Part shown: positions 21,774 to 40,120 of the stretch, one piece after another
Numbering within the stretch: position 1 is the first letter of the stretch
How the letters are laid out: each line of letters starts with the position of its first letter
Source: Candidatus Bathyarchaeota archaeon
GTDB taxonomy: Archaea > Thermoproteota > Bathyarchaeia > Bathyarchaeales > Bathycorpusculaceae
Assembly (NCBI GenBank): GCA_963811105.1
Contig: CAWEPZ010000011.1
Coordinates: 896,001 to 960,000 of the forward strand
Direction of reading: 5' to 3'
DNA: 64,000 bases
The notes under the pieces: generated by a model
Databases searched by the model: none
Told to the model about the DNA's origin: nothing
The model's input: the letters and a program-made list of their open reading frames with translations, nothing else
Program-made: the position numbers and the translations under genes

Positions 21774-22033
21774 TCAGAGGTAGGCTTGGTCATGGTGGGT
21801 ATGCTTTATGATTTGGACGGTAGGCGGGGTTTCTATTGTTCGGTATATGAGCACGAATGGTCCGATGTGAACTCTTCTAAGCCCTTCTAGTGGATGTTTA
21901 ATGGTTTAAACTGGTAGGGGTCTGTTGGAATCTGCTGAATTTTCTTATTCACTGCTTCTAGCTGTTTTCTATCTTTCTTGAGAAGCTTTCTAAATGTCTT
22001 TGAAGTTTCTTCTTCAATTTCAAGGCTGTACAA
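21774..22033 (-). CDS. RelE/StbE-family toxin, 1-nt frameshift near 21900
   Basis: MYSLEIEEETSKTFRKLLKKD...DPYQFKPL / HPLEGLRRVHIGPFVLIY...HHDQAYL*. Lies directly behind the antitoxin. Confidence 0.8.
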
Positions 22034-22037
22034 GAGA

Positions 22038-22274
22038 TCACTTTAGGCCAAACTCTTGGGCAAAATCCTTGACTTTAACAAATTTCCCTTTTTTGAGAGT
22101 ATCTTCTACGTCTTTTGCAAATTCAGGTCTAAGTTGGGGTTCAAGCTCACATTCTTCATACCGCTTGATTATTACGCTTAAGGCTTGGCTTCTGTCTTTG
22201 AGGCCATATTTTGCTTTGACTATGTTGATTACTCGGCTTTCCCTTTCATCCAAATTGATTACATTCTTTACCAT
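22038..22274 (-). CDS. Antitoxin, DUF2683-like
   Basis: INIVKAKYGLKDRSQAL...LEPQLRPEF; upstream of a RelE toxin. Confidence 0.75.
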   Translation of the reverse strand: MVKNVINLDERESRVINIVKAKYGLKDRSQALSVIIKRYEECELEPQLRPEFAKDVEDTLKKGKFVKVKDFAQEFGLK

Positions 22275-22393
22275 CGAAGCCCCTCTAGCAATTACGTCGA
22301 ATAATACAGAATAATAGGATGTTATTTTAGGTATTGCGCCTTCTAAGAACATATTAATCAGACGTCAACTCACAGCTATTTGAGGAAGAATGT

Positions 22394-22597
22394 TTGCCGA
22401 TTGTTCAAGTTTCTGTTTGGGAAGGGATAACACCTGAAAACAAAAAGAAAACAGTTGAAGGAATAACTAAGGTCTTTGAAGATATGGGCGTTCCTAAAGA
22501 TGCAGTCCATATAGTGATTTATGAAGCGCCAAAGAGTAATTGGGCAACGGGCGGAAAGTTACATTCAGAAAAACACGCCCAAACACCCTCACTCTAA
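22394..22597 (+). CDS. 4-oxalocrotonate tautomerase family protein (intact copy)
   Basis: M-P start giving catalytic Pro-1, VHIVIYE.PK.NWATGG, 67 aa. Confidence 0.92.
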   Translation: MPIVQVSVWEGITPENKKKTVEGITKVFEDMGVPKDAVHIVIYEAPKSNWATGGKLHSEKHAQTPSL

Positions 22598-22965
22598 CAC
22601 GAATAATTAGAGCGCTGCCTTGTCTCGAGATTAAGCATTGAAATAATAACTTTCAATTAGATTTTGCATCCATAATTTCTGCACATTTAAGCTCTGATCG
22701 GAGGAAAACAAAAAAGGCGCGCTTTCCCGATAACCACCAAAGCGGATTTATCGTTGACGCTTAGCATTAATCGATGCATTAACTTCAGATAGAAGAAAAC
22801 CCATTTTTTGGAAGCGGTTTAATTAACCTTTTAGAAGGGTTTTCCTTAAATGTTTAAATGTGTTGCTGAAGAAAGATGGGTTAATGAAAAAAGGACTTTT
22901 GTCTTTTGCTTTTCTGAAAAAACAAAAAGAAAGAAAAGTAAGGAATCAATTTATTTTAGTAAACA

Positions 22966-23580
22966 TTGGTGCTAATGAAAGTGCAGCTGATTTCTTTAAT
23001 TTATGAGCTTTTCTGGTTTAGCTTTTTTGCGTTTACGTTAGGATATTCTGTAAAAAGGCAAGGGTTTAAGCAATCGTCGGTTTTCTTTTTGCCTGCAGTA
23101 GTTTGGGGTCTTTTACTCGAATATGCTACTCAAGAAGTCTTTCACAGGTATCATTACGGTGGAGGTTTTGTGGTTAACATTGTAAATGTTCCCTTATGCA
23201 TCGCGTTGGCTTGGGCGGCTTTGATGTACATCTGCTATTATGTTTTTACTCAAAAGCTCAAGTTGAAAAATTCAATAGCTGTTGCATTGACTGCAAGTGT
23301 TCCTTTGCTATTGGTGGACGCTTTTATTTTGGAGCCGACAGCTAAGCTATTTGGTTTTTGGGTTTGGACGCCTCAAGGTTTATGGTTTGGCGCCTCTTTA
23401 GGCAATTTTTATGGCTGGTTTTGGGTAATCACGCTATACCTGTCTTTTTACAATTTCTTGCATTGGAAAACAAACGACTGGAGAAAAGCACTTTTGATAA
23501 ATCTTGGACTTATTATAGTAAGAGTCATCATTCTAATCGCTTTACTTCAAGCATATAAAATGGCATTCGGAAACCTTTAA
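22966..23580 (+). CDS. Polytopic membrane protein, CruF/DUF422-like
   Basis: LLE...YHY, VPL.I..AW, D.FILEP..GFWVW and GNFYGW. Confidence 0.65.
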   Translation: MVLMKVQLISLIYELFWFSFFAFTLGYSVKRQGFKQSSVFFLPAVVWGLLLEYATQEVFHRYHYGGGFVVNIVNVPLCIALAWAALMYICYYVFTQKLKLKNSIAVALTASVPLLLVDAFILEPTAKLFGFWVWTPQGLWFGASLGNFYGWFWVITLYLSFYNFLHWKTNDWRKALLINLGLIIVRVIILIALLQAYKMAFGNL

Positions 23581-23714
23581 CAGCTGTTAGTAACTTTTAT
23601 GTTAAAATGGATCTTTAAGTTAGATTTGTTTTAATAAAAAAGGTTGTCAGCTAGCTTGAGTTTGTTAGCTTAATGTTGTTTGTTTCAATGTGTTCTTCTT
23701 TTGAGATTGGATTG

Positions 23715-24134
23715 TTAGATGAACATTGAAACGTCTGCGCCGGCAGCGATGTCAAGGAATGTTGCAGCGCCAACCATGCTATCTACTTCAGGAATAAGGT
23801 CTTCTCTTTTGATTCCAAACATTTCCATCGTTGGTGTGCAGGCGTAGATTGTACATTTGCCGGATTGTTTCATTCGTTTGAGCATATCGTAAGGTGAGGG
23901 ATATTTCATGCGTTCTAGGTTCTTTCGCATTGCTTCTTCAAGATGCTTGTAGTCTCCGGGCAAAACTGCTTTTTCCATGGCGCCTTTTGCTAGACTTTGT
24001 AGCCCCCAGAATGTGAAGTATAGGTGTGCTTCCCAACCCATGGCTACAGATGTCGATGCTAAAATAAAAGCGCAGTAGAGTTTGTCGATTGTTCCGCTTT
24101 GAACAACTAATGCTATTTTTTTGGTTTGATTCAT
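23715..24134 (-). CDS. DsrE/DsrF/DsrH-like (DsrE2 type) sulfurtransferase
   Basis: AFILASTS..MGWEAHLYFTFWGL, IYACTPTMEMFG and VGAATFL. Start at MNQTKK. Confidence 0.88.
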   Translation of the reverse strand: MNQTKKIALVVQSGTIDKLYCAFILASTSVAMGWEAHLYFTFWGLQSLAKGAMEKAVLPGDYKHLEEAMRKNLERMKYPSPYDMLKRMKQSGKCTIYACTPTMEMFGIKREDLIPEVDSMVGAATFLDIAAGADVSMFI

Positions 24135-24286
24135 TTTTTTATCACCTTCTTTTCTTGTGGTGCACAATTTTGGCAGCAAAAACTGACTTTTTTTCCGTCT
24201 ATTTCGGTGGTGAAAGCTGCAAGTTGGCAAGGTTCTTTAGTGATTTCCGTGCCACAGCAATTACATTTGGATGTTTCTTTTTTCAT
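24131..24286 (-). CDS. TRASH/YHS-like metal-binding microprotein (51 aa)
   Basis: MKKETSKCNCCGTEI...IDGKKVSFCCQNC. Overlaps the iscU stop (TAATG) and the dsrE start (ATGA). Confidence 0.75.
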   Translation of the reverse strand: MKKETSKCNCCGTEITKEPCQLAAFTTEIDGKKVSFCCQNCAPQEKKVIKK

Positions 24287-24669
24287 TATTCCACCCCTTT
24301 GTTTTTCTGCTTTTTTTGGTAGTCTTCGATAGCGGCGTGGAGTGCATCGGCTGCTAGGTTTGAGCAGTGCATTTTCACTGGGGGGAGACCTCCAAGTGAT
24401 TCGGCTACACTTGCGCGAGTGATATTCATGGCTTCGTCGATTGTTTTTCCTTTTGCAAGTTCTGTTGTCATGCTGCTTGTTGCAATAGCTGCTCCGCAAC
24501 CGTAGGTTTTGAATTTAACGTCTTCAATGCGGTTGTCTTTAACTTTTATATACATCGTCATTAGATCTCCGCAGGTGGGGTTTCCAACTGAACCCACTCC
24601 GTCGGCATCAGGGATTTCTCCCATGTTTTGAGGATTCTTAAAATGTTGCATCACTTTTTCAGAATACAT
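24286..24669 (-). CDS. iscU: Fe-S cluster scaffold IscU/NifU
   Basis: YSEKVMQHF.NP.N.G, GNPTCGD, FKTYGCGAAIA and LPPVKMHCSNLA. Confidence 0.96.
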   Translation of the reverse strand: MYSEKVMQHFKNPQNMGEIPDADGVGSVGNPTCGDLMTMYIKVKDNRIEDVKFKTYGCGAAIATSSMTTELAKGKTIDEAMNITRASVAESLGGLPPVKMHCSNLAADALHAAIEDYQKKQKNKGVE

Positions 24670-24670
24670 A

Positions 24671-25858
24671 TTATTTCAACTCCTTAGGAGTTAGAGGAGA
24701 CATATCTCTTAGTCTCTTAACAATATCTGGCATTAAACTTTTTACTTTGTCCACGTCTTCTTGAGTGTTTTCTTTTCCCAAAGTGGCCATTAAGGAACCA
24801 TGTGCATCTTCAGGTTGTAAGCCTAGAGCTAGCAGAACATGTGATGGCTGTAGTGTTTTTGCGGCGCAAGCTGATCCAGATGATGCATAGACGCCCATGA
24901 TATCTAAGCTTAAAAGTATTGATTCGCCTTCGATGAAGCTGTATCTAACTGATACATTGTTGGGTAATCTTTGGGTTGGATGTCCGTTTAAGTATGAATA
25001 TGATATCGGTTCGATGAGACCTTTAATTAGGTTGTTTCGCAACAAAGTTAGTCTTTGGCTTTCGTTTGCCATTTCGTTTTTGGCAATTTCAGCAGCTTTA
25101 GCAAACCCGACAATGCCGGGTATGTTTTCGGTTCCAGAACGTAATCCGCGTTCTTGGCCGCCCCCTTGATTTACAGGTTCTATTGTAGTGCCGGGTTTGA
25201 TGTAGAGTGCTCCTACGCCTTTTGGTCCATACATGTCGTTGCTTGACATTGTGAGCAGGTCAATATTTTCAGTTTGGACATCAATTGGGACTTGACCACA
25301 GGCAGCTGTAGCGTCAACGTGAAGAAAAGCCTTTTTTGAATGCACAATTTTGCTGATTTCTTTAATTGGTTCAATGGTTCCTATTTCGGGGTTTGCGTAA
25401 ACGATTGAAACAAGCGTAGTTTGATCATCTAATTCAGCTTCTAGCTTTTCTAAATCTAAAACCCCAAACTTGTCAACGGGTAGGAAAATGACTTGAAATC
25501 CGTTTCGAATCATCAACTTACAAGGGTTGACAATTGACATGTGCTCAACGCTTGATGTTATAATTTTGTTTCCGCGGCTTTTGTTTCGTCCTGCGATGCC
25601 CCTGATGGCTAAATTGTTGCTCTCCGTTGCGCCTGAAGTGAAAACTATAGCTTCTGGGGTTTCTGCGTTGATTAATTTCGCGATAACTACTCTGCTATTT
25701 TGCAATGTCTGCTTGGCTTCCTGTCCCAAAGTATGCACTGAGGAAGGATTCCCAAAGCTTGAAGTAAAGAAAGGCAACATCGCATCAGTTACAAGTTGGG
25801 CAACTGGTTTTCCGGCTGAATAATCCATGTAAATTCTTCTTGGACTATCGTTTTCCAA
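24671..25858 (-). CDS. iscS: Cysteine desulfurase IscS/NifS
   Basis: FGNPSS.H, FTSGATESNN, GGGQERGLRSGTEN and SSGSAC. The PLP-lysine motif reads SSNDMYGPKG instead of SxHKxxGPKG. Confidence 0.92.
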   Translation of the reverse strand: MENDSPRRIYMDYSAGKPVAQLVTDAMLPFFTSSFGNPSSVHTLGQEAKQTLQNSRVVIAKLINAETPEAIVFTSGATESNNLAIRGIAGRNKSRGNKIITSSVEHMSIVNPCKLMIRNGFQVIFLPVDKFGVLDLEKLEAELDDQTTLVSIVYANPEIGTIEPIKEISKIVHSKKAFLHVDATAACGQVPIDVQTENIDLLTMSSNDMYGPKGVGALYIKPGTTIEPVNQGGGQERGLRSGTENIPGIVGFAKAAEIAKNEMANESQRLTLLRNNLIKGLIEPISYSYLNGHPTQRLPNNVSVRYSFIEGESILLSLDIMGVYASSGSACAAKTLQPSHVLLALGLQPEDAHGSLMATLGKENTQEDVDKVKSLMPDIVKRLRDMSPLTPKELK

Positions 25859-25878
25859 AATTATGTCCCTTCGTTTGA

Positions 25879-26109
25879 CTATTTCAACTTCTTAATTATT
25901 ATTCGAGTTACGCCGTCTTCCTGTTTGCTTTCCAGAACTTGGTCGCCTAAGTTTTTAGCAAGGTTTTCGATATCAGATTTTGCTGCCGGATCATCCGCTG
26001 TGACTTCCAGAGTTTCTCCAACCTTCATTTCATCCAACTGCAATCTAGTGTTAAAGACCGGTTCGGGACAGAACAAACCTAAGCAATCTAGCGATTTATC
26101 AGCTTTTAT
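25879..26109 (-). CDS. tusA: Sulfur carrier TusA/SirA
   Basis: LDCLGLFCPEP and LEVTADDPAA..DI. Probable start at ATA (IKADKSLD) behind GAGG. Confidence 0.9.
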   Translation of the reverse strand: MKADKSLDCLGLFCPEPVFNTRLQLDEMKVGETLEVTADDPAAKSDIENLAKNLGDQVLESKQEDGVTRIIIKKLK

Positions 26110-26263
26110 AAAAATAACCTCACATAGATTGAGAAAAAAGCAAACAATAAATGTTTTGCACAAAGTACCAAAATAATCTGTGTAAGAGCTTTACCAAAAA
26201 AGGATGATTGGTTAACTTGAGCATTTTCGGGCGGCATAATTTTCGTTTAACTTCGAAAGATGA

Positions 26264-26375
26264 AACAAGCGGAAAGCGGCATTCAGAAAAACACGCCAAA
26301 CACCCTTCACTATAAATACGCATAAATAGTAACGCACGGTTTCACCTTTTGGCATAAATTCAGAAAACATAATCG
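26264..26375 (+). pseudogene. Tautomerase 3'-end remnant plus downstream flank
   Basis: GCGGAAAG..CATTCAGAAAAACACGCCAAACACCCTTCACTATAA matches 22551-22597. The whole stretch is a near direct repeat of 27469-27560. Confidence 0.8.
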
Positions 26376-26456
26376 CTCAGAGTCTTGTCATCCGCACTTG
26401 GAAGTTAATCATAACCCTTATGTATTACATTGTATTCTGGCTCATTATGATGACTA

Positions 26457-26759
26457 ATGTCTGAGCAAAGTAACGTAGTTACTCTACGTCTTTCAAAACG
26501 TGCCCTACAAAGACTTGAAGCTATACGAACCATTGAGAAAACTGACCGCTCAACATTGTTTAAGGAATTCATTGAAGATGGGTTGCGCAAAAGAACGGTA
26601 AAACTCTACAGCGCGGGCAAATTAAGTGCTGGACGCGCAGCAGAGATCTTGGATATTTCGCTACGGGAGTTTCTTGAACTGCTTGAGCAGGAATGCGTAT
26701 CGGTTAGCTGGGATTCTGCAAGTGTTAAGGAGTACTTGAAGGTAAAATACGGAGAATAA
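26457..26759 (+). CDS. UPF0175-family antitoxin (RHH + HTH)
   Basis: VVTLRLS and VKLYSAGKLSAGRAAEILDISLREFLELL. Confidence 0.82.
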   Translation: MSEQSNVVTLRLSKRALQRLEAIRTIEKTDRSTLFKEFIEDGLRKRTVKLYSAGKLSAGRAAEILDISLREFLELLEQECVSVSWDSASVKEYLKVKYGE

Positions 26760-26763
26760 CCTT

Positions 26764-27306
26764 TTGCGAATCGTGGTTTCTGATGCAGGACCGCTAATTC
26801 ATCTTGCCCAAATAGGTCAGCTTCAACTTTTGAAGAATCTATTTAAACACGTATCTATAACCGCCAAAGTTAAGAATGAAACAGTTGATGAAGGAATTAA
26901 TCATGGCTTTGTTGACGCCCAGATTATCGGCAAAGCTATTCAAGATGGATGGATAACGGTTGATAATGTTTGTGAGCATCTATCTGGATCAATAGAGCGG
27001 CTAGTGATAGGTGAAAATATTTCACGAGCAGATGCAGAAACTCTTCTGATGGCTAAAAACAAAAATGCAGAACTACTTGTTGACGACAAAGTTGTTGCAG
27101 ATCTCGCAAAAATGTACGGACTCAGAATTTGGAACACATGGACGATATTGCTGGAAAGCCTTAGTGAAGGCTTCATTGAAGTACAAGTTATTAAAAATGC
27201 AATAGACGAACTTGGCAAAAAACGACATAAACTACGTGAAAAACAAGCAGAGGAAATACTAAAAGCAACAAACGCAATAGTAACATGCAAGAAGAAAACT
27301 GACTAA
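26764..27306 (+). CDS. PIN-domain toxin, DUF3368-like
   Basis: IVVSDAGPLIHLAQIG, ADAETL and LLVDD. Confidence 0.85.
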   Translation: MRIVVSDAGPLIHLAQIGQLQLLKNLFKHVSITAKVKNETVDEGINHGFVDAQIIGKAIQDGWITVDNVCEHLSGSIERLVIGENISRADAETLLMAKNKNAELLVDDKVVADLAKMYGLRIWNTWTILLESLSEGFIEVQVIKNAIDELGKKRHKLREKQAEEILKATNAIVTCKKKTD

Positions 27307-27344
27307 CTAACAACGACTTTTTAAACAGCCGTATCAAGCTATCC

Positions 27345-27560
27345 ATGACTTCTGAAAACAATAAGAAAACCGTTGAAGGAATAACTAGAGTCTTTGAAGA
27401 AATGGGCGTTCCTAAAGATGCAGTCCATATAGTGATTTATGAAGCTCCAAAAAGCAATTGGGCAACGGGCGGAAAGTTGCATTAAGAAAATCACGCCAAA
27501 CACCCTTCACTATAAATATGCATAAATAGTGACGCATGGTCAAAGTCAGAAAACATAATA
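27345..27560 (+). pseudogene. N-terminally truncated tautomerase copy (lacks Pro-1) plus downstream flank
   Basis: 27345-27485 reads MTSENNKKTVEGITRVFEEMGVPKDAVHIVIYEAPKSNWATGGKLH*, nearly identical to the intact gene. Confidence 0.9.
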
Positions 27561-27706
27561 GCTTCTACATTGAAAGCCCTTGTATGCTATTGAGGCAGTA
27601 AAAAGTTTGTGCAACATAATATCTTGCCTATAGCCAAAATCTCTTAAAAAGCAAGCCAACAAATTATCCCGCCTCTCAGCACCGAGGCTCCGTCTCAAAT
27701 TGATAA

Positions 27707-27965
27707 TCACTTGTATATGGTTCTTCTGGGACCTATAGCTATAACATATACTCTTTTGTCTTTCTCAGAAACTGCATATATTATACGCAGTTTTCCGACA
27801 CGAAAACCAAAGTTTTCTTTTAAGTCTCCATGAAGGCTTTTTTCAGCGTTAGGATCCTGTTCTAAACCAATTAAGCATTCCTGCAGAGTCGCTTTTCTTT
27901 TCCTTCTAACTTTTGTAGAAACGCTCAGTTTGCCTCGACAAAACAACAGTGAACTTAGGCTTCAA
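27707..27965 (-). CDS. RelE/ParE-family toxin, frameshifted near the 5' end
   Basis: The TTG frame MKPKFTVVLSRQTERFYK joins LEQDP..KSLHGDLK..FRVGKLRIIY..VYVIAIGPRRTIYK. Confidence 0.82.
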
Positions 27966-28179
27966 CGTGCTCTTCCTTCAGAAGGGAACGCAAATCCTTG
28001 ACTCTTCCAGCCTTAATGTCATCTTGACCTCGCTTGATAACTTTCATCATTTCTGGATCACTTAAAACGTCGATCGTTTCCATAAGTTCACCCATAAGTT
28101 TAGTAGCTTCCTCCAGCTTTTGCCTGGTTTCACAAAGAAGCTTACGATCGTCCTCATCTAAATATTCAGTCTTAGCCAT
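27955..28179 (-). CDS. Antitoxin of the RelE toxin
   Basis: LMETIDVLSDPEMMKVIKRGQDDIKAGR, a typical RelB/Phd-like C-terminus; overlaps the toxin start. Confidence 0.8.
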   Translation of the reverse strand: MAKTEYLDEDDRKLLCETRQKLEEATKLMGELMETIDVLSDPEMMKVIKRGQDDIKAGRVKDLRSLLKEEHVEA

Positions 28180-28264
28180 CAACCCACCAAACTAACATTA
28201 TAAAGATGTCTAAGGCAACTAATAAATTTGAAAAAGTCAAACTATTCTTAGATTTGTTGTCTAA

Positions 28265-28323
28265 GCAGTTCACATAGTAATCATTGAAGCTCTCAAAATC
28301 AACTGGCAACAGGCGGAAAAGCT
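28265..28323 (+). pseudogene. Diverged internal tautomerase fragment
   Basis: GCAGTTCACATAGTAATCATTGAAGCTCTCAAAATCAACTGGCAACAGGCGGAAAA reads AVHIVIIEALKINW/TGGK against intact AVHIVIYEAPKSNWATGGK. Confidence 0.75.
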
Positions 28324-28343
28324 CCCTGACTACCACTTAAAAA

Positions 28344-28733
28344 TTATTCTATCATCACAGCGTCTTTGATGTTCTTGAAGTGTAAATCTCCCGTTAAAAC
28401 TTTAGCGTTTAATCTCCTAGCAGTAGCTAAGACATAAGCGTCCGCTAGACCAAAATCTTTCAGGGTCTTTCTCATTTCACAATGCAGAAGCCCCGCCTGC
28501 ACAGAGAGTTCTTTATCTACATTCACAATTTGTGAGTTGCTGGACACAACGCTACTTGCCGCTTCGATATCTCGTCTTTCTCGGGCGACTTTGCTAATGA
28601 TTTCTGCAAGCGTTATGGCACATGTGTAAACTTCGTTATTATTCTCATCTAAGATCTTGTTAAGCTTAGCACCGTGTTCACTGCCAACTAGATACTCAAC
28701 CCATGCCCAAGCATCAATTACGTAGTTACTCAA
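28344..28733 (-). CDS. vapC: VapC PIN-domain toxin
   Basis: YVIDAWAWVEY, TLAEI, GLADAYVLATA and LTGDLHF. Confidence 0.9.
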   Translation of the reverse strand: MSNYVIDAWAWVEYLVGSEHGAKLNKILDENNNEVYTCAITLAEIISKVARERRDIEAASSVVSSNSQIVNVDKELSVQAGLLHCEMRKTLKDFGLADAYVLATARRLNAKVLTGDLHFKNIKDAVMIE

Positions 28734-28938
28734 GCGAAGATTTCAACTCGTCTTCAACTGTGAAGGGAGCCATACCTTTTAAGATACCGAAGCCGTCTTT
28801 TCGGCATTTTTTAACTGTGATTTCGACATACTCGTTTTCCTTTATTTGTTGGAGGTCGACTACTTCTTTGGGAAGAGTAACAACGATGGAGCCGCCGACT
28901 TTTCTGGTCTTGGTTAAGCATTGATGCATATTAATCAC
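28726..28938 (-). CDS. vapB: AbrB/MazE-fold antitoxin
   Basis: KTRKVGGSIVVTLPKEVV; overlaps vapC. Confidence 0.85.
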   Translation of the reverse strand: MINMHQCLTKTRKVGGSIVVTLPKEVVDLQQIKENEYVEITVKKCRKDGFGILKGMAPFTVEDELKSSLE

Positions 28939-29106
28939 TGTTATATTTAATTATACTTTTGTTATACTTAAGGATTTTTCTGTGATTATACCTCAAGATT
29001 TTTGTGAATTGAACAGCCATTGCCAGATCTTCGAGTTGCTCTCGATACAAACGTCTTTGTAAGCGCAATTATTCTTGGATTTTTGCGCTTTCTAAAAAAT
29101 ATTGCT

Positions 29107-29200
29107 CAGACGACAACTCAAAACTATCGAGATAGAATGTTTGCCGATTGTTCAAGTTTCTGTTTGGGAAGGAATAACTCCTGAGAATAAGAAGAAAACA
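29107..29200 (+). pseudogene. Tautomerase 5' remnant including its leader
   Basis: TCAGACGACAACTCA..AGAATGTTTGCCGATTGTTCAAGTTTCTGTTTGGGAAGGAATAACTCCTGAGAATAAGAAGAAAACA matches 22358-22453 (MPIVQVSVWEGITPENKKKT), then stops. Confidence 0.9.
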
Positions 29201-29921
29201 TTTCATGTAATGATAAGCAAAGGAAAATGTATTCGGGTTCAATGTCTATGCTTTTAAAACCTTTGCAAAAGTCAATTGATAAGTTAAATGGAAAAATGGC
29301 TTTAGTAATCAGCTTCCTTAAATCTAAAAACTCAGATTTTCCCATTCAGTCTCTCTGGAGAAATCGATGGCATAGTCAATTCAACAGTCAGTTATCTAAC
29401 TGCATAGCTTATAAGCAATACTTGAACAAATTTTGGTCACCAAAGTTTCTTCTTCTTGGGTTCCTCTCCTGAAAGAGGATACTTTTTTGGTCTGCAACTG
29501 GGCTTGCTGCAGTGTTGCTATTTCTTATTCGTACAAGCATGTTCTGAGGCATTGACTACGTAAACGAAATTCCTTTTATTGTTGCGATTGTGATTGCTGT
29601 TTTCGTAATTCCCGTTCCTCTCATGCGCTATAATATTAACCTGACAAGAAGAAAAATTATAGAGGAATTTGGCAGGTTCGCAGAATTATCACCATATCTA
29701 ATTGATTCTTCAAAGAATGGAAAATGAGAAGCTGTTGTTAAAATTGAAATGTAAAATTGGTTATTAGAGATCTTAATTCAGAATAAGCTCTGTTTGTACC
29801 AAGATAACTATTCCAGAAAAAGCTTTACATCCCGTCTTCCCAGACCATCGCGATAGTATAAAAACCAACGACTACATATCGTCACACAGAAGGCATTTAT
29901 ATTGGATACTCTTCTCTCTTA

Positions 29922-30491
29922 ATGGAGACTTTTGACATGATTATTGATAGAGATGAGAGATGGACTTTTGGTCACGCACTTCATCTTGAAGTTGACCCGA
30001 CCCCAACATCAACTTGGGGTTCTTTTATGCGTAATACACTATATTCTAAAATTACATTAAACGGAGGTACGAGTAATTGGGTATTGGCTTCTATACCAAC
30101 TCCAAATGTAACTAAAGGCTGGAAAATCTCTTCTACAATGCTCAGATTTGCTATCAGAGGGACGGGACCGGAATTCGGAATTATTGATAAAATTGGAGTA
30201 CGAGATGGCCCCGAAACTGTTTTCGATACTGAAGTGAATGTAGACAGGCTATGGGGTGGAATTGTAGAATGGAAACTCCTTGTACTAGATTACCCACAAC
30301 CTATGCCATTCAAAAATGGTTTAGGTGTTTCAATACACGTAAACTATCCCGTCAAACCAACTGACCCTTCGTGGCCTTCTTTTCCACCAACAGAATTTCT
30401 CTTTGCCAGCGTTGGATTAGGATTTGTTAAAGAATCGGTCATAGTGCCACCTATAGAAACAGCACCAACTACAGCGACAACTAGTAGATAA
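29922..30491 (+). CDS. Hypothetical beta-rich protein (possibly DUF6623-like)
   Basis: GHALHLE, NWV..SIPTP, MLRF, VRDG and GLGVSI. The family name is from memory only. Confidence 0.6.
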   Translation: METFDMIIDRDERWTFGHALHLEVDPTPTSTWGSFMRNTLYSKITLNGGTSNWVLASIPTPNVTKGWKISSTMLRFAIRGTGPEFGIIDKIGVRDGPETVFDTEVNVDRLWGGIVEWKLLVLDYPQPMPFKNGLGVSIHVNYPVKPTDPSWPSFPPTEFLFASVGLGFVKESVIVPPIETAPTTATTSR

Positions 30492-30923
30492 GATTACTTT
30501 CCTCCCCCTCTTATTTTCTATAAGAACGTCAGGTTTGGGGTAAGGCGCTTGCTAAACCAGCCAAACGAATAGAGAATCACGTTTTCAGCAGTGAGAGTTA
30601 CAAGTGGGACAATTGCAAAACCAGTTTCAAACACATATTTGCTCTCACAACCTATTCTATCTGAAAGGGTTGAAAAGGTTTTTCATATTTCCCCAACGGA
30701 AATCCCCCACTTGTTTGTGACCTTCTGCACCGGACAAAAACGGCTCATAAACTACAGGGGAAATCAATCTTTGGGGTAGTGGATGTCGTTTCTTCAGCTA
30801 AAGTTGCTATAAATCCGGAGCTTTCCGATTCAGCTTTTGAACCTTCAAACTATTTTTTTTCCTTTTCTTATTTTACTTTCTATTTAAATACTAAAAAAAA
30901 GAAAAAAGGATTATTTGTTGTTT

Positions 30924-33482: not shown

Positions 33483-33650
33483 TTTCCCTGATTCTCCTTG
33501 ATAATTTCTGGAGAATTTCTAGCTTATATTCTTTTAGTAAATTATACCTAAGCATAAAAAGAGACATGTTGGGCACCATAATCACTAAAGAGGAGTTTTT
33601 TTTCCTTTGAAAATAGAAGCAGGTAATTATTCGTTGTTTTATGTTTGTAT

Positions 33651-33706
33651 TAAATTTTAATTTCGCCGTTAAAATTGCGGTAATCTTGTGTTTAGTTCAA
33701 ACTCTA
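33651..33706 (+). repeat. Conserved non-coding element, copy 2
   Basis: TAAATTTTAATTTCGCCGTTAAAATTGCGG-taatcttgtgt-TTAGTTCAAACTCTA; 41/56 ungapped identity to copy 3 by manual count. Confidence 0.8.
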
Positions 33707-33790
33707 ATTACATATTGTTTTTTGGAGCCGCCAAAATAGAAATAAGGAAAGGATGTTTGCATCCACCCACAAAAACTTTTCTAAGTCGCT

Positions 33791-34027
33791 TCAGACTCGC
33801 GTAAAACGTCCTCCAAACATTTTTTCTAACTCCTGACGGGCACCTTCACTTCCTCCGCGAAGTCTTGCCATGTTCAACTTGTACACTGGGCAAGAAGTGT
33901 ATTGATACCCTTTTGGGTTGGAGCATCGTACAACAATCCCTCCATCAGGGGGAACACACATTCTGTCCTCGTTGAAAAATTGACAACCATAACCGCCATA
34001 GCTCCTGTCTCCTTCAATTGTATCCAT
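33791..34027 (-). CDS. Small Cys-containing hypothetical protein between repeat copies 2 and 3
   Basis: AGGTGA RBS, MDTIEGD...CQFF...MCVP...RCSNP...SCPVY. Confidence 0.7.
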   Translation of the reverse strand: MDTIEGDRSYGGYGCQFFNEDRMCVPPDGGIVVRCSNPKGYQYTSCPVYKLNMARLRGGSEGARQELEKMFGGRFTRV

Positions 34028-34190
34028 AACAAAATCACCTCCCCCTAACAATTTTGAGATAAAAAGCCTATTCGAGTTCCTCTTTAAATTACTTGCCCTA
34101 TTTACAGTCACGCATGTTAATATGGAGACTTTTCCATGAGATTCTTAATAAATATGCGTTTTTGTAGTCAATTGACCATTTTTTTTAAAT

Positions 34191-34246
34191 TAAACTTTGA
34201 TTTCACCGCTTAAGTTGTGGCTTTCGGTTTGTTAGTTCAAACTCTA
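34191..34246 (+). repeat. Conserved non-coding element, copy 3
   Basis: TAAACTTTGATTTCACCGCTTAAGTTGTGG-ctttcggtttg-TTAGTTCAAACTCTA; a direct repeat 540 bp after copy 2. Confidence 0.8.
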
Positions 34247-34426
34247 TTTTAGAATTAATTACACAGTTGCCTAAAAAGAATATTCTATTGAGTATTTTTC
34301 TCTATAAAAAAAGACATATTTTAACTTATGCCCTAACCCTAATTGTAGTGTTGTGTTCTATGACCGAGAATACGATGAAGCAATAGAAGCCTAATGTGCC
34401 CTCTCTTTTTTCTTGCGGTTTGTGGA

Positions 34427-35209
34427 TTAATCGACTTTCTTGATTTGATTGTTTTCAGGTTCTTTTCTTTCCATCATAATTGTATTATAAAGCCATTTCT
34501 CAAAAGCTTCCTCTGAAGTCAAGTCTGCTTGAGCACCATTGATTTTCAGTTTGTGATTTCGAAATTTGCCCTTCCGTTTCCTTTCCTTCAGCTTCTCTTT
34601 CAGCCAATCATACAAAAAAGACGAAAACAAACTAAGTGCCACGTTGGGCAATACAGTATTCCCGAAATAACCTATTGCGGTGATAATTAGAGAGGAATCT
34701 TGTTTGTCTAGATTTTCATAGTGTAGCTCAATCGTAACTTCTTCTTTAAGTTCAATTATGACTCCTGCTTTTGTGTAGTATATCTCTTTGACAGCTTTTT
34801 TGTCATCAGTATGAGCAACATATGCAGTGGGCAGACTGAGGGACGTAAACTTGTCGATTGTAGCTACGAACGTAGACTTATCTGTTGGAGCAATTTCAAT
34901 TTGTATAGCTTTTTGTGTTATCATTCTTCGGTTTTGCATGTTGTAAGAGGTGGGCGCTTGTTGAACATATGCGGATGGAAATCTTTGCTGAGGGTTGGGC
35001 TGTACGTTTGGAGTAGGGAATACTGATGTAACTGCTAAGATGACAAAAGCTGTAGCCTTTCCAAAGGTTAGGGCTACTTTTGCTAAATATTTATTTCGAG
35101 CCTTTTTTTGAACAAGCTTGGAGCAACGTGGACAAAACTCGGATTCTTCATCATGCACTAATTCGCCACAAATAGAGCATTTCAAAGGAAAACCATCCTC
35201 AACTTGCAT
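34427..35209 (-). CDS. Hypothetical protein with N-terminal Zn finger and hydrophobic segment, between repeat copies 3 and 4
   Basis: CSICG...FCPRC, a TM-like segment and C-terminal FSSFLYDWLKEK..KLKING. Confidence 0.7.
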   Translation of the reverse strand: MQVEDGFPLKCSICGELVHDEESEFCPRCSKLVQKKARNKYLAKVALTFGKATAFVILAVTSVFPTPNVQPNPQQRFPSAYVQQAPTSYNMQNRRMITQKAIQIEIAPTDKSTFVATIDKFTSLSLPTAYVAHTDDKKAVKEIYYTKAGVIIELKEEVTIELHYENLDKQDSSLIITAIGYFGNTVLPNVALSLFSSFLYDWLKEKLKERKRKGKFRNHKLKINGAQADLTSEEAFEKWLYNTIMMERKEPENNQIKKVD

Positions 35210-35342
35210 AGATGTATTTGCTTTTTCTCGACTATTAACAATTCCTATTTAGTTTTATTCAATCATTTAACTAGTTCCATATATTTGTTTGAGTCATCAT
35301 ACATTCTGGTTTTCTAACCTATTTCTATTCTATGCATTCAAA

Positions 35343-35426
35343 CTCATTTTGTTTTCGAATCCTTTTATGGTTACTGAATTTGAACTAAGTTACGAAATGC
35401 CGCAACCTTAACGGCTAATTTTTAAT
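35343..35426 (-). repeat. Conserved non-coding element, copy 4 (long form, matching the integrase leader up to its ATGAG)
   Basis: Minus strand reads AATTAGCCGTTAAGGTTGCGG-catttcgtaac-TTAGTTCAAATTCAGTAACCATAAAAGGATTCGAAAACAAAATGAG. The ORF after the ATG is only MSLNA*. Confidence 0.82.
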
Positions 35427-35634
35427 CTTTCTCTCTCTCTCTCTCTTCTCTCTCTCTCGCGAACTCATACGACTACGAACTCTCTAACTCTCATTCACTC
35501 ACACACCCGTGCGCGTGCTAACGTCTGTCAGTCTGTCAGTCTGTCTCTCTTAGTGTCACCCTGTTACTCTGTTACTCTTACTCGCTGTCTTTGTCAGACT
35601 CTCTGCCATTGTCAACCTGTCACTTTCTGTCACT
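35427..35634 (+). repeat. (CT)n microsatellite followed by about a dozen YTGTYA-like hexamers
   Basis: CTCTCTCTCTCTCTCTTCTCTCTCTCTC, then CTGTCAGTCTGTCAGTCTGTC, CTGTTACTCTGTTACTC, TTGTCA and CTGTCACTTTCTGTCAC. Confidence 0.8.
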
Positions 35635-36520
35635 CAATCTGGCGTTTGCGTTTCTTGAAGTAAACCAACAAAGCAACAACTAAAGTCACGGAAATTATGA
35701 TGCCAGCAGCCACAGGGATAATAGGGAAAGTCTCTGGCACTTGCACATCAAAACTAATTGTTTCTGAGGTTCCAACTTCCCATGCTTCATCCATTGTGTA
35801 AATTGTTAACTTATGCAGACCATTAGACAAGCCAGTAAGAGTGGTATTTCCAGTAATAGTTACATTCTTTCGGTCATCAAGACGTACTTGATTTCTAAAG
35901 CCGGGTTATCCACAGTGAAATTTAAAGGAACATTAGAAACAGCGTAGTTCTCTGCTTTAGGCGACAGAAGCGATATTTGAGTCAGAGTGAGGGTTTGTGT
36001 ATTGCTCCAACTGCTTATTTCACCAGTAAAAACATCGTGATACAATTGCCCTAATGGAAATACATAATCGTCATAAATTCGAGTATAATACCCTATAAGT
36101 GCCTCAACGCAAAAATCTATCTGAACGTTAATGTTTCTTGACTGGATTTAGTCAAATTTTCTTGACCTACTTTTTCAGTATCAAACATTTCCTTGCAGTC
36201 TTTCCTGATTTTAATCAGAACAATTGGTATGGCGAGTAGTAAGGGTAAAATTGTTAACCAAGAAAACTCTGGAACGGAAGAGAAGGTAGAACTGATAAGT
36301 TCATTTAAGGTAATTGTCCACTTGTAGCTTTGATATTATGTATGTTTTTTCTATAGATTGTTATTACAATAACACTAACCAATGTTATTACTAAGGATAC
36401 AAAAGTCGCTCCAAGCAAAATCCCACTATCAAAGTATGATGTTTGTAAACTTGCGTAAGTTAAGTTGCCATATCTGGATGCACCGTGGAACGTTAAGCCG
36501 GAACAAAAGTAGACATTATG
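35630..36520 (-). pseudogene. Patchwork of C-terminal remnants of surface proteins (three anchors)
   Basis: ...SLVITLVSVIVITIYRKKHT*; VPEFSWLTILPLLLAIPIVLIKIRK; QIDFCVEALIGY...SSWSNTQTLTL; VPETFPIIPVAAGIIISVTLVVALLVYFKKRKR. No signal peptides or starts. Confidence 0.7.
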
Positions 36521-36779
36521 ATGGATTATGACTTGCCCTATTCGGTTCTCGGCAAGCTAATCGACAAATGCGGTTCCACAAAGCCATGAGAAGAGCTTTG
36601 ATATAGGTTTGCAAAAACTGAAAGACATGAGGGAGAAATAATAACTCCTAAGGCGCGCTGCGTTAACGCGCTACTTTTTCCTTTTATTATGCGTTGAAGA
36701 ACGTCGGTGAGACTGCTGCTTTGTCGGGTCTTCCAAGGTTTTGAGCTGCTTCTCTGGTTAAGACTAGACAAAGTTAAGA

Positions 36780-39757
36780 TTAATCGCATAGGCATTTGTA
36801 GTCGCAGTAGTTGCATTCCCAGCTTCCTTTTTTGGGTTCAAATGCTGCTGCTTTGATTTTTGATGCCATCTCCGCGATTTCTGTTCGCATTGCTTCAATG
36901 GCTTTGTTTTCGGGTTCAAAAAACACTTTCTCGTTGGATCGTAAGAACCAGTTTCCGACCTTCAAAGGACCATCGCCATATATCTCCTTAACAGCAAGTG
37001 CATAAACCAACAGTTGCATGTCCTTTTTTAGCTCGTTTAGAGACGATGCCTTTTTGCTTGTTTTATAGTCGACAACAGTGTAGCTGGATCCGTCTCGGTC
37101 GATGCGGTCGATTCGTCCTCTTAGCTGTATGTCGCCAATCGAGGTTTCAAACCACCGTTCAATGTCAACAATCTCCGTCTTGCTCTTAGCCTGCTCTTTT
37201 AGGAAAACTTTCAAGATCGCCTTCGCCTCTGCATAATCTCTCTTTTCATCAATCTTTGACTTGTAGCCTTTCGGATCCCAAAACTTCGCAAGAAGCTCAC
37301 CAGCAACATCTTTGTTTATGGCTTTGCCGTCTTTTTGCATCCTAGTTAATTGCTCTGCGATACTGTGCAGTGAGGAGCCGAAGTCAAAGTAGTAGCGGGG
37401 CTTCTCCGGAATCTTCATAACATGGCGATACTGGTAGAGCCTGGGACATTTCTTGTAGCCGACAAATTGCGACACGCTAAAAACGTGGTCTTCGGAGACT
37501 GTAACTGGCGCTTCGTCAGCTTGTTCCAGTGCTGAGTAGTCGGGTTCTTTTATCTTGCCTATTAATTCGGTTTTGATATCCAGGTTTTTGTTTGTTGATT
37601 TGGCGTATAGGAGAACGTTTTCTATGGCTTCGTTGAATTTTCCCGCTGTTAGGTTTGATATTACTTGTTTCATGAGGCGGGTTTGGGTTTGGTTTTCTTT
37701 TGTTGTTGATTCTGGAGAGAGTTCTTGAGGGTCAGCTTGTCGGAAGGTTATGTTTTCGTTTTGTTGATAATCTATTTCGGTTAGGAATCTTGAGGGTTTT
37801 GAGTCTGTTTTGTTTTCACCATAACGCTTTGCATAGGTGATAATTAGCTTCTCTTTGGCTCGGGTTATGGCTACGTAGAAGAGTCTTCGTTCTTCTTGGA
37901 TATGGAGCTCTTTTTCGTCGAATTTGGATTTGATTCCCTTGATTAGGTCTTGGGGGATTGAGAATTTGTCTTTTTGGAATTTTGTTGGCAGCCTATGCTC
38001 GATGACGTCTGGAATTATGACCACGGGGTACTGCATGCCTTTGACGCCATGTATGGTTGAGATGGTTATTGCTTGTTCTTCGAGGTTTTTTTCTTCGATT
38101 TCAAAGTTTGAGGCAAAAGACAGATACTCTGCAAAGTCTTCTACATCATTATTCGGATAGATTCTGTTGAATTCTTCGGCAAACTCAAAAAACTGATTTA
38201 AGAGCTGTATGTTTCGGTTGTTTTGGAGCGCTATTTCGTATTTGTAGAATTCGCGTTCAAAAAGCAGGCTGTGAATGAGGTCAAGTGTTCGAAGTCTCTT
38301 TTTGGAGCCAATTATTTCGGAAAGGGTCTGTTTGACTTGGAGGAACTTGAATTTATCCACATCAATACTCGCTTAAGTGGTCAAAGGCCTCATATAATGA
38401 AATTTCATTTTGATCAGCATAGCAGTTGAATTTGCATATCTCAATCTGCCTAATGCCGTAATTGCTTCGGTTTAGAATCCTTACGATTTCAGCATTGCTT
38501 TCTAATGGGTTACTTATGACTTTTAGGTAAGCTGCAACGTCTTTTATGATAGGTTCTTGGAAGAAGCCTGTCTCGCCAACGAAGTTAAAACGCATGGCCT
38601 GCTTTCTGAATGCTTTGATTATTGGTTCAGCAGTCGACCTTCGCCTGCACAATATCGCTATATCTTGCAAGGGATATTTTTTTAGGAGCTCTTTGACTGT
38701 TTCTAGAATATAGTTTGCTTGCGAAGAATCGCTTGGAGTCTCGACGATCGCTACGTTTTCTCCGTCTGGGTTGGTTGTGAAAAGTTTCTTAATTGTTCTT
38801 TCGGGACTCTTTTCAATTAGCTTGTTAGCGGCTGCTACGATTTTTTTGGTGCTACGGTAATTGTGTTCTAACGTTTTCTCAACGTAGTTAGGGAACATTT
38901 TTTTGAATTCTGCTATGTTTGTTAGGTAGGCGCCTCGGAAACGGTAAATACTTTGATCATCATCGCCTACCACGGTGATGTGGCCATGATTGCTAGCTAT
39001 CAAATGGACTATCTGCAGTTGAATGTAGTTAGTATCTTGGAATTCATCAACGATAATGAACTGGAATTTTTCCCGATATTTTTTTAGGATAAGTGGCTTA
39101 TTTTTTAGTAAGTTGTAGACTGTGCAGAGCATGTCTCCAAAATCAAGCATGTTATTTTTTGCTTTATAATCTTCGTAGGACCTGATAAATTTTTAGTATA
39201 TCCTTTAAATTGTTTAAGTCGTCAAGAGCTTCTTCATCGAGCCCGGTTTTTTCCTGAGTTTCAATGTATTGTTGAATATCCTCTGGCGAGATTGATTCGT
39301 CTTTGCATCTTGAGATGAACTTTTTCATTTCTTCAGCTAAGGTGTAGGGTTCATGGTTGAATTCAAGATGCTCAATACCAAAACTGTTGATGTTCTTGGT
39401 CAAATAGACTTTTTGAGCTGTTTCAGTGATTACCTTAAAGTTAGCATTAAGTTTAGTGTTAAGAATGTTATCTTGAATGACCTGATTGCAGAAAGAGTGA
39501 AAGGTTGATATGTTCAAGTCCTCAGCATTCCCAACCATACCCAGAACTCTATTCTTAAGCTCCTCAGCCGCCTTCTCATTAAAAGCTAAAGCAAGAATAT
39601 TCTCTGTTTTAGCACCCTGCTCCAAAAGATAAGCAATTTTACTTGCCACAGTTAAAGTCTTGCCTGAACCAGCACCTGCTATTATTAGAAGGGGCTTCTC
39701 AATCTCTTTCACAGCTTCCTGCTGCTGAGGATTAAGATTGTCCATGAGATTCATCAT
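36780..39757 (-). CDS. UvrD/PcrA SF1 helicase fused to a RecB-family PD-(D/E)XK nuclease with Fe-S cysteines (AddA/AdnB-like); two frameshifts
   Basis: AGAGSGKT, VDEFQD, VGDDDQSIYRFRGA, STIHGVKG and EERRLFYVAITRAK, then KKCPRL, GRIDRID, VVDYKT and CNYCDYKCLC, across three consecutive ORFs. Confidence 0.9.
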
Positions 39758-40001
39758 CTTGCCGCCTTAGCACTTGTCAACGTCATCATTGACGTTGCGT
39801 AGAGAATTTAACGTTTTGCAACTGCAAAATTTTACCGACGAATTAGAAATATAGCAAACAGAAGCAAGCATAGTCTTTCATACTCTAAGGAACAAATCAG
39901 CCTTCACGGCTCAGACGCTTCTAATCGAAAATAGGAGTATTCGTTACTGAAACCTTCACTTGAAGAAAAAGAATTTCACTCTATAATAAAACAGCCAAGC
40001 G

Positions 40002-40120
40002 AAGTCTCTGTTTGAGGAGCTACAAAAGCAATTGGGCAATATACTGAAAACTGCATTCAGAAAAAAAACGCACAAACATCCTCACTATAAAACACATAAA
40101 CAAAACATTCAGAAACTATG
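40002..40120 (+). pseudogene. Internally deleted tautomerase remnant
   Basis: AAGTCTCTGTTTGAGG (5' part) is fused to AGCTACAAAAGCAATTGGGCAA..CTGCATTCAGAAAAAAAACGCACAAACATCCTCACTATAA (3' part). Confidence 0.75.

Follow-up and report, generated by a model that had tools for sequence, protein, structure and literature searches.

Whole and truncated copies of a tautomerase gene bound accessory gene blocks in a Bathyarchaeota genome: a possible recombination-driven cassette array

A 64-kb stretch of a metagenome-assembled contig from a Candidatus Bathyarchaeota archaeon (GenBank CAWEPZ010000011.1, positions 896,001 to 960,000; the whole stretch is termed the window, and its coordinates carry the prefix w where those of another locus stand beside them) contains a small gene of the 4-oxalocrotonate tautomerase family followed by a series of partial copies of the same gene, with toxin-antitoxin (TA) modules and other genes lying between them. 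The locus raises the question as to whether the tautomerase gene takes part in the gain and loss of the DNA between its copies and, if so, by what kind of recombination. The initial annotation had proposed that the gene is either a recurrent site-specific integration target or a homology anchor through which TA alleles are captured in tandem. Comparison with a close relative shows that at least one event recombined inside the 3' repeat of the gene, and that close strains differ in the presence or arrangement of the blocks which tautomerase copies bound. We tentatively favour the interpretation that the locus is a recombination-driven cassette array whose junctions are directly repeated whole or truncated copies of a multicopy tautomerase minigene.

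The tautomerase gene and its partial copies

The product of the intact gene matches the Pfam family PF01361 at E 8.5e-12 over residues 2-56, and the NCBIfam 4-oxalocrotonate tautomerase models down to E 5e-17, which is below their equivalog cut-offs. The 67-residue protein is 99% identical to other Bathyarchaeia proteins, and the proline at position 2 is invariant across the 31 aligned tautomerase proteins. The profile matches and this proline place the repeated gene in the 4-oxalocrotonate tautomerase family, its enzyme activity and substrate being predictions. Codon changes between full-length copies of different genomes are mostly synonymous (13:2, 24:2 and 17:4, synonymous to non-synonymous), the first two ratios being among those for the intact gene. 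Together with a promoter and a short flank the 204-nucleotide (nt) gene forms a minigene: across 2996 pairs of related loci the alignments start most often at -50 to -10 of the gene, and the conserved stretch typically begins near -50 and goes no further than the stop codon, reaching +64/+86 in one subgroup. Clear ends of a mobile unit flanking the gene were considered and rejected on this comparison; terminal repeats were not seen.

The entire window was searched by blastn with the gene and its flanks (22200-22800) as the query, and by nhmmer with a profile of full-length copies. The five partial copies, labelled A to E from left to right (Table 1), were recovered by blastn as B (27352-27515, 91.5%, E 6e-62), D (29083-29211, 84%, E 1e-33), A (26269-26329, 84%, E 2e-10), E (40024-40099, 76%, E 3e-9) and, weakly, C (28265-28319, 73%, E 0.03). 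The nhmmer profile returned B (5.9e-42), D (1.3e-14), C (2.6e-6) and E (1.8e-4); fragment A went unreported at E<=0.01 because only about 47 of its coding nt remain. The orthologue of C in the related locus L001 (15041-15099; see below) is detected by nhmmer at E 1.6e-9, and at E 6e-9 against the gene of L001 itself. The initial count of one intact and five partial copies on the + strand is confirmed: the six copies lie on one strand within 18 kb, and neither blastn nor nhmmer found a comparable tautomerase match elsewhere in the window. In a direct-repeat search of 20-42 kb the tautomerase families were the only meaningful repeats, families D5 and D15 of that search including the repeat at fragment A.

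As had been noted at the outset, the copies retain different parts of the gene and differ in their divergence from the intact one. The 3' fragments all overlap at nt ~139-165 of the gene and four of five reach the stop codon, with differing 5' limits and identities of 76-91%; in the window and its relatives the 5' ends fall at nt 34, 52, 106, 109, 125-139 and 153-158. Fragment A, with which ~30 nt of downstream flank are counted in gene coordinates, shares with B a downstream flank of ~100 nt that is alike in the two and resembles the flank of an L001 copy, and is unlike the flank of the intact gene of the window. Fragment B carries an in-frame stop and its changed codons stand at 8 synonymous to 9 non-synonymous; it is a decaying pseudogene.

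A TTG start preceded by an out-of-frame ATG is common to the intact copy (22394) and fragment D (29141), the copies in L001 and L006 starting with ATG. A very short gene-conversion tract might account for this, or chance; gene conversion between the two was dropped, as a common TTG start alone is too little to sustain it.

Variation of the array between strains

We compared the window with 79 loci that were fetched from species representatives around relatives of the tautomerase gene, giving 80 sources with the window included. L001 and L006 lie on a single contig (CAWHSP010000025) of a close relative, which comes from a separate assembly of another sample and whose shared DNA is 92-98% identical to that of the window. 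On this contig the iron-sulfur (Fe-S) operon, a fragment, TA2, fragment C, TA3 and a tautomerase copy follow one another as they do in the window. The interval w23591-26340 corresponds to L001 11572-14322 at 97.9% identity, and w27464-29211, which takes in TA2, to L001 14246-15992 at 96.3%. Since these stretches of L001 overlap each other by a 77-nt repeat, exactly one unit of 1,200 nt is missing from that locus, namely TA1 with one repeat: L001 joins w26340 to w27464 through a single repeat copy, and TA1 is missing exactly between the two 77-nt repeats that flank it in the window. These two repeats are 88% alike, and the single repeat of L001 resembles A in its left part and B in its right part, with the switch falling in a stretch of 11-21 nt just past the stop codon. 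The two strains hence present an occupied and an empty site for TA1, the junction of which falls within the 77-nt repeat of the tautomerase, and at least one recombination event took place in the 3' repeat of the gene. A cassette that varies between strains and has its junctions in the gene is what had been proposed as support for an array of this kind. Among the 79 loci none was found to be a donor locus with TA1 directly after an intact tautomerase.

Other differences also gather at tautomerase copies. On the left, a full copy in L006 (copy 1) ends 18 nt before homology to w16353 begins, the window DNA at that place being unrelated. The intact gene of the window and the TA pair upstream of it stand in place of 6.7 kb of L001, and homology resumes 48 nt past the gene (w22645). 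From there the block with the CruF-like gene is syntenic (w22647-23599 with L001 8882-9837), lying upstream of a tautomerase copy in L001 and downstream of one in the window. Between this block and the Fe-S operon, L001 carries a further full copy (copy 2) and a gene for the flavodiiron protein FprA, 1.7 kb in all, that are missing in the window; the junction of this indel shows a microhomology of 7 out of 9 positions, and in relatives the FprA gene adjoins the Fe-S operon. Fragment D is cut at nt ~71, and its positional orthologue in L001 (copy 3, 15841-15996) reaches at least nt 138, where the contig ends. In the comparison of 16-30 kb of the window with L001/L006, five of the seven synteny breaks (w16353, w22645, the indel of copy 2 with FprA, the TA1 indel and the truncation of D) lie within 50 nt of a tautomerase copy or remove one. 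A rough binomial estimate, under the assumption that ~15% of the region is tautomerase-related, gives P ~1e-3 for such a concentration.

When the two strains are merged into a pan-array, every block is preceded by a tautomerase copy and all copies have one orientation. The left part reads copy 1, a block of glycosyltransferase, GlgB and hydrolase genes, the upstream TA pair (TA0), a copy, the CruF block, copy 2, and the FprA gene with the Fe-S operon; the right part continues with A, TA1, B, TA2, C, TA3, D or copy 3, the 10.8-kb block and E.

Fragments downstream of the gene and on its strand are also found in L002, L003 and L004. Copies lie in direct orientation on CAWHSP010000025, with three copies and two fragments in 23 kb, and in L002, with two copies and one fragment that are closest to one another (94-98%). 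The cassettes of L002 and L003 hold small membrane proteins and an FMN reductase, with no recognisable TA domains. Synteny between L004 and L001 starts at nt 156 of a truncated copy, to the left of which L004 has 7.5 kb with a Bax1/XPB-like pair, a nucleotidyltransferase and VapBC, and then an intact copy. Directly upstream of that intact copy lies a 188-residue open reading frame (ORF; L004 9394-9960, - strand) that matches terminase large-subunit PHROGs at E 2e-12 and adjoins an ABC/AAA-type ATPase ORF (L004 7503-8954, - strand); the two may be the remnant of a provirus.

Genes of the array and distribution of the tautomerase

Table 1. Coordinates in the window of the tautomerase copies and of the genes and blocks around them
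Feature	Position	Strand	Remarks
RelE/YafQ-like toxin gene, interrupted	21774-22033 (ORFs 21887-22033, 21774-21854)	-	upstream pair (TA0)
Putative antitoxin, 104 aa	22038-22352	-	upstream pair (TA0); no family
Conserved promoter region of the tautomerase minigene (~-59 to -1)	22334-22393	+	copied in fragment D
Intact 4-oxalocrotonate tautomerase family gene	22394-22597	+	67 aa, TTG start, Pro2; PF01361
CruF-like (Caroten_synth) gene	22966-23580	+	Pfam
DsrE-like, IscU/NifU (NifU_N), cysteine desulfurase (Aminotran_5), TusA operon (Fe-S operon)	23715-26163	-	Pfam
Fragment A	26264-26377	+	nt ~153/158-204 and downstream flank; left 77-nt repeat of TA1 cassette, ends 26340
TA1: UPF0175 antitoxin-like (26457-26759), PIN nuclease (26764-27306)	26457-27306	+	PF03683, PF20698
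Fragment B	27345-27563	+	nt 34-204 and flank; 3' part is right 77-nt repeat, ends ~27540
TA2: ParE/RelE-family toxin (27707-27946)	27546-28182	-	PF05016 at E 9.5e-6
TA2: small upstream ORF (presumed antitoxin); 54-aa ORF	27955-28182; 27546-27710	-	
Fragment C	28263-28324	+	nt ~106-165; most diverged copy; tblastn aa 37-56
TA3: VapC (PIN) (28344-28733), VapB (MazE/AbrB-type) (28726-28938)	28344-28938	-	PF01850 at E 9e-18, PF04014
Fragment D	29083-29211	+	promoter from -59 through nt 71
D-E block, 10.8 kb	29212-40008		small unknown ORFs, PQQ/Ig-like surface protein, zinc-ribbon protein, UvrD/PD-(D/E)XK
Fragment E	40009-40099	+	nt ~125/139-204 and ~10 nt; between two opposite-strand UvrD-family genes

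The Pfam scan, which took in 71 ORFs of the window, confirmed the genes first listed between the copies, that is the CruF-like gene, the sulfur-relay (Fe-S) operon, the TA modules and the block ending in a UvrD-type nuclease. TA1, TA2 and TA3 belong by family to type II TA modules, for which toxicity and neutralisation are predicted, and these three pairs alternate one-for-one with fragments A, B, C and D. TA3 is matched by the NCBIfam VapC and antidote models as well, and the two ORFs of TA2 other than the toxin have no family match in Pfam, PHROGs or NCBIfam. The fourth TA pair that had been placed directly upstream of the intact gene is weak: its 104-residue putative antitoxin has no match in Pfam, PHROGs or NCBIfam and a homologous segment 5 kb downstream of the tautomerase in L010, and the toxin gene is interrupted, with its 48-residue N-terminal piece reaching TIGR00053 (YafQ) only at E 7e-4, below cut-off, and its C-terminal piece being RelE-like by eye only.

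The block between D and E has no homologue in the 79 loci except for paralogues of its surface protein. Eight of its small or unknown ORFs scanned against PHROGs and four against NCBIfam gave no match, and terminal repeats were not found at its ends. At its right end the UvrD/PD-(D/E)XK helicase-nuclease is split into three ORFs (36780-39757, - strand). Within the block there is an intergenic 71-nt direct repeat with 72% identity (33639-33709 and 34179-34249, 540 nt apart). Other genes broken into adjoining ORFs, likewise on the - strand, are GlgB (18174-19893, two pieces), a DEAD/Helicase_C helicase (47884-50975, several pieces) and the RelE-like toxin of the upstream pair; the split in GlgB is also seen in L006. 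Such split genes are either pseudogenes of a decaying island or indel errors of long-read assembly.

To the right of fragment E a defence-type island (40181-63664) encodes a UvrD-family helicase of 941 residues, an Eco57I/N6_Mtase-type methyltransferase (51409-54237), an SNF2/ResIII helicase (55305-58184), a DUF559/restriction endonuclease-like ORF and, at 61863-63664, a DUF6036 nucleotidyltransferase adjoining an HVO_2833-like winged helix-turn-helix protein. The archaeal marker TFIIB is encoded at 8593-9450, and the names of the closest tautomerase proteins and the titles of the 79 related loci agree on a placement in Bathyarchaeia. The G+C content is 41% for the whole window, 42.8% to the left of 21.3 kb, and 38-41% in the array and beyond.

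Bathyarchaeia possess two tautomerase paralogue types, of 64 and 67 residues, the latter being that of the window. The neighbours of the 64-residue type are partly conserved. Those of the 67-residue type are almost wholly different between genomes (1945 flanking ORFs fall into 1435 clusters) and are often ordinary genes such as those for thermosome, catalase, ferritin and ribosomal proteins. Fragments occur in five of the 80 sources, namely the window and L001-L004, all of one clade: in a tree the copies and fragments of the fragment-bearing genomes form one supported clade (11-14 rows) with no resolved inner structure. As far as can be judged from these sequences, they all fall in one genus-level clade, and capture from distant donors shows no sign.

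A general enrichment of TA genes beside the tautomerase was considered and dropped: TA-type domains were found at a distance of up to 2.5 kb in only five of 33 other loci (L005-L038 without L006; 150 of 156 small ORFs scanned), and the fraction of small ORFs is alike upstream and downstream of it. Because glycogen genes, CruF, and FprA (flavodiiron) with Fe-S genes are likewise found in blocks that have tautomerase copies at their borders, the link to TA modules is not a general one. The one-for-one alternation is real in the window, yet TA modules are not the defining cargo.

Some further features of the tautomerase genes stand apart from the array. The complete chromosome CP147779.1 of an Asgard archaeon (Atabeyarchaeia) has two copies (L014 10001-10204 and L016 10001-10204), one of them lying between the genes for L5 and S8 in the ribosomal protein operon, that are 98.0-98.5% identical at the nucleotide level to a Bathyarchaeota copy (L019 1610-1813), the conserved unit spanning about -45 to +64/+86. 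To judge by this likeness, it looks like a recent cross-phylum transfer of a minigene of ~330 bp. In two other Bathyarchaeota genomes, on CAVYXL010000012.1 (L057 and L021) and CAWCSI010000002.1 (L037 and L031), two copies of the 67-residue type face each other at distances of 12 and 17 kb. Between them lies an island, shared in part, with VapBC and UPF0175-like genes; one contig has the entire region between the copies inverted relative to the other, and synteny stops ~65 nt upstream of one copy. Tautomerases of either type are often adjoined by oxidative-stress genes (L001, L002, L004, L011, L015, L020, L048 and L058), with products such as flavodiiron protein, catalase, ferritin/Dps and rubrerythrin, which may hint at the physiological role of the enzyme.

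Origin of the array

How might such an arrangement arise? Under the tentatively favoured reading, a DNA circle with a 3' piece of the gene and cargo, formed either by excision of a cassette or from part of the tautomerase locus of a relative, would enter a resident copy by a single (Campbell-type) crossover. This would restore an intact gene on the left, with the new cargo next and a 5'-truncated copy after it, and the reverse crossover between two direct repeats would remove a cassette. Repeated rounds would yield the order of intact gene, newest cargo, fragment, older cargo and fragment, with the fragments then decaying. The likeliest engine would be host homologous recombination with circular intermediates, which we prefer because no recombinase was seen, because the repeats are long and varied in extent, and because the phenomenon is confined to a clade whose members carry several directly repeated copies of the gene. 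TA loci stabilise chromosomal regions, and we speculate that TA addiction may tilt outcomes towards the keeping of cassettes and hence towards accretion.

The 3' fragments each keep the gene's own downstream flank, which fits a single crossover in the 3' segment, and the variety of their 5' ends would follow from each incoming piece bringing its own end. Full copies in the clade are 87-94% identical at the nucleotide level with mostly synonymous changes, and occur several to a genome in direct orientation; the gene is therefore suited to the role of a homology anchor.

Several observations weigh against this interpretation. The hybrid repeat of L001 is predicted alike by a deletion in the L001 lineage and by an insertion in that of the window. 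The repeats, at 84-91% identity and with no more than 27 identical nt in a row, are a poor substrate for classical homologous recombination, and fragment C lacks the predicted 3' end, so that an extra deletion is needed. Shared 5' ends (A with the L004 fragment at nt ~153-158, C with the L002 fragment at nt ~106-109) hint at preferred break sites, with about one such coincidence among 28 pairs being expected by chance. The FprA and Fe-S block, whose limits are 16 nt past the stop codon and 7 nt into fragment A, sits elsewhere in L002 (92% identical) with no tautomerase flanks, which is a misfit with a circle carrying tautomerase homology. As fragments are seen in so few of the sources, the behaviour is no general property of the gene.

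The strongest competitor, which we regard as improbable on balance while leaving it a real chance, is a birth-and-death process of tandem paralogues, wherein many full copies existed, some decayed by ordinary deletion, and TA and other genes filled tolerant spacers; the gene would have no role in the uptake of DNA, and its copies would recombine only to delete. Relatives do still hold several full copies close together, fragment B has decayed, a simple deletion across direct repeats could account for the TA1 difference, and the confinement of all copies and fragments to one clade, the mutual closeness of the L002 copies and fragment, and the scarcity of TA domains near the gene in other loci agree with such a history. 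Additive flexible genomic islands are a close system, as are tandem paralogue clusters. Clusters of the latter kind are described in bacteria as varying by recombination in a conserved segment (PMC2568036). Here as in those systems the unit of change runs from inside one copy into the next and copy number varies among strains; the variable material of the present locus, by contrast, is unrelated cargo (TA, defence and metabolic genes) rather than the paralogues' own parts. What birth-and-death leaves unexplained is the placement of five of the seven strain-specific breakpoints at copies, the fact that all fragments but D are 3' pieces with their own downstream flank, and the switching of sides of a copy between strains by blocks such as that of CruF. 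Nor have the copies within a genome been homogenised (83-94% identity) though held as long-term neighbours.

An unlikely alternative is site-specific tandem integration, with the 3' end of the tautomerase gene serving as the attB of a tyrosine recombinase encoded elsewhere or lost; each cassette would then be what remains of an integrative element that carried the gene's 3' end within its attP. The layout, in which the whole gene stands leftmost and every cargo block is followed on its right by a 5'-truncated copy, is the classic signature of repeated 3'-end integration, and A and the L004 fragment begin only a few nt apart. Such behaviour is documented for archaeal elements: a survey (PMC6563490) reports integration into 3'-distal parts of protein genes for 14 of 68 elements in Thaumarchaeota, with re-use of one site in tandem arrays. 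The arrays described there (PMC6563490) resemble ours in having an intact target gene followed by same-strand 3' partial copies that bound accessory blocks, in the re-use of the site and in content that varies between strains; they differ in that no integrase is found here in or beside the blocks, which can be ~1-kb TA pairs or housekeeping operons, that the repeats are 60-200 nt long, 76-91% identical and of varying extent rather than short identical att sites, that D is a 5' fragment, and that relatives carry several full copies.

The search for a recombinase bears directly on this point. By Pfam no integrase, other recombinase or transposase was found in the 71 window ORFs, and the D-E ORFs scanned with PHROGs and NCBIfam gave none either. 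A divergent tyrosine recombinase-like ORF (2-1138, - strand) runs off the left edge of the window, matching a PHROG integrase at E 3.3e-5 and nothing in Pfam, NCBIfam or PDB. It belongs to a large Bathyarchaeia family in which, among the matches listed, 6 of 120 bear the JGI name XerD or integrase and 2 of 120 carry PF00589. Against its involvement, it lies 21 kb from the array, and tblastn of the 79 loci detected no member of its family out to 10 kb from the tautomerase. Of the 175 representatives of mid-size ORF clusters, the 140 from L005-L035 were scanned; 18 from L001-L004/L006 (several scanned separately) and 17 from L035-L038 (two scanned separately) were left out. Phage_integrase domains appeared in two of the 140, one 5 kb from the gene and one in L034, where comparison with L033 puts it within an insertion ~490 nt downstream of the gene and not inside it; in the related loci scanned no integrase adjoins the tautomerase. 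The ~1-kb cassettes hold a TA pair only. Aligning the copies revealed neither an evident shared crossover core nor a common 5' boundary among the fragments; the one mapped crossover (TA1/L001) falls just past the stop codon, a single event being too few to define a core. A tRNA gene as the real target was ruled out by its absence from the window and the eight loci scanned, and Rfam gave only two sub-threshold matches in 21-41 kb, both inside helicase genes. For integrase-driven tandem integration, then, an empty and an occupied site are found, and an integrase in or at the element is not.

With regard to the initial reading, which is partly supported, the homology-anchor branch fits better than the site-specific one, for which there is no direct support in the window or near the related loci. 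Of the idea that the anchor captures TA alleles, the anchor is the part that fits better; the cargo is not TA-specific, and with all copies in one clade there is no sign of capture from distant donors. The emphasis on TA modules and the claim to novelty were overstated.

That the assembler concatenated alternative strain haplotypes carrying the tautomerase with different TA modules is very improbable. The source is indeed a metagenome-assembled contig (the window's own protein at 2-1138 lies on one of 1.5 Mb), several window genes are split by what may be sequencing errors, and many environmental contigs with the gene are short, so that the locus is hard to assemble. However, the copies are cut at different positions and are only 76-91% identical, unlike near-identical haplotype repeats; the contig from another sample, an independent assembly, reproduces the order A, TA2, C, TA3 and tautomerase at 96%; and fragments are present in L002, L003 and L004. 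Least credible of all is an integron or integron-like array with tautomerase fragments in place of attC sites: same-strand repeats do alternate with small, TA-rich cassettes as in chromosomal integrons, and integrons are reported from Archaea (bioRxiv 10.1101/2022.02.06.479319), yet there is no IntI-type integrase (no Phage_integrase match in the window by Pfam), no attI or attC-like structure, and the cargo, of 0.8 to 11 kb, lies in both orientations and includes multi-gene operons.

An attC-like fold was rejected on the grounds that single-strand DNA folds of six repeat regions are no better than those of shuffled sequences (z -1.95 to +0.25), and RNAalifold on 17 downstream regions predicted 0 pairs. 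A hairpin over the stop codon in several copies was also dropped as a conserved element: its mean z over 51 loci is -0.30, no better than the controls inside the gene (-0.75) and downstream (+0.17). As for transposons and insertion sequences (IS), there is no transposase domain in the window and there are no terminal repeats at the D-E block ends. The locus lacks the tested defining features of both integrons and transposons.

In IS26 translocatable units, a circle with one repeat and cargo joins a resident copy to give repeat-cargo arrays, and recombination between direct repeats releases units. The mechanism proposed for the tautomerase array would work like these units and other homology-driven arrays in its alternation of repeat and cargo; unlike them, the array here repeats a functional gene for a cellular enzyme, which is under purifying selection, is not an IS and encodes no transposase. 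The locus differs from the known systems in the combination of no integrase or transposase seen, a functional cellular gene as the repeat, long diverged repeats and housekeeping cargo. Literature searches found no description of this arrangement, and the word tautomerase does not occur in a paper on Asgard mobile elements (PMC11529989). The first statement that nothing of the kind is described in archaea holds for the integrase-free form bounded by gene fragments; since 3'-end integration and tandem re-use are known in archaea (PMC6563490), novelty is limited to that form.

A bolder version, which we consider doubtful, is that the ~330-bp minigene is, in one Bathyarchaeia lineage, the junction module of an integrase-free cassette exchange that shuffles TA modules, defence genes and housekeeping operons among strains, with TA addiction favouring accretion over replacement. 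Circles bearing part of the gene and cargo of any kind would enter and leave resident copies through recombination inside it. If true, the minigene would do in archaea what attC sites do in integrons or what IS26 translocatable units do, with a cellular enzyme gene as its basis, and the near-identical Asgard copies would reflect the same module crossing phyla.

Little is known about how accessory genes are gained and lost in uncultured archaea such as Bathyarchaeia, and the locus offers a concrete case, open to testing, where exchangeable blocks have a conserved cellular gene at their borders in place of a tRNA gene or the end of a mobile element. If recombination within the gene drives both gain and loss, it would represent a simple, homology-based way of building genomic islands and would explain why metagenome assemblies break there. 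If only decay of a tandem family is at work, the locus would still be a useful marker of a hypervariable TA and defence region in this lineage.

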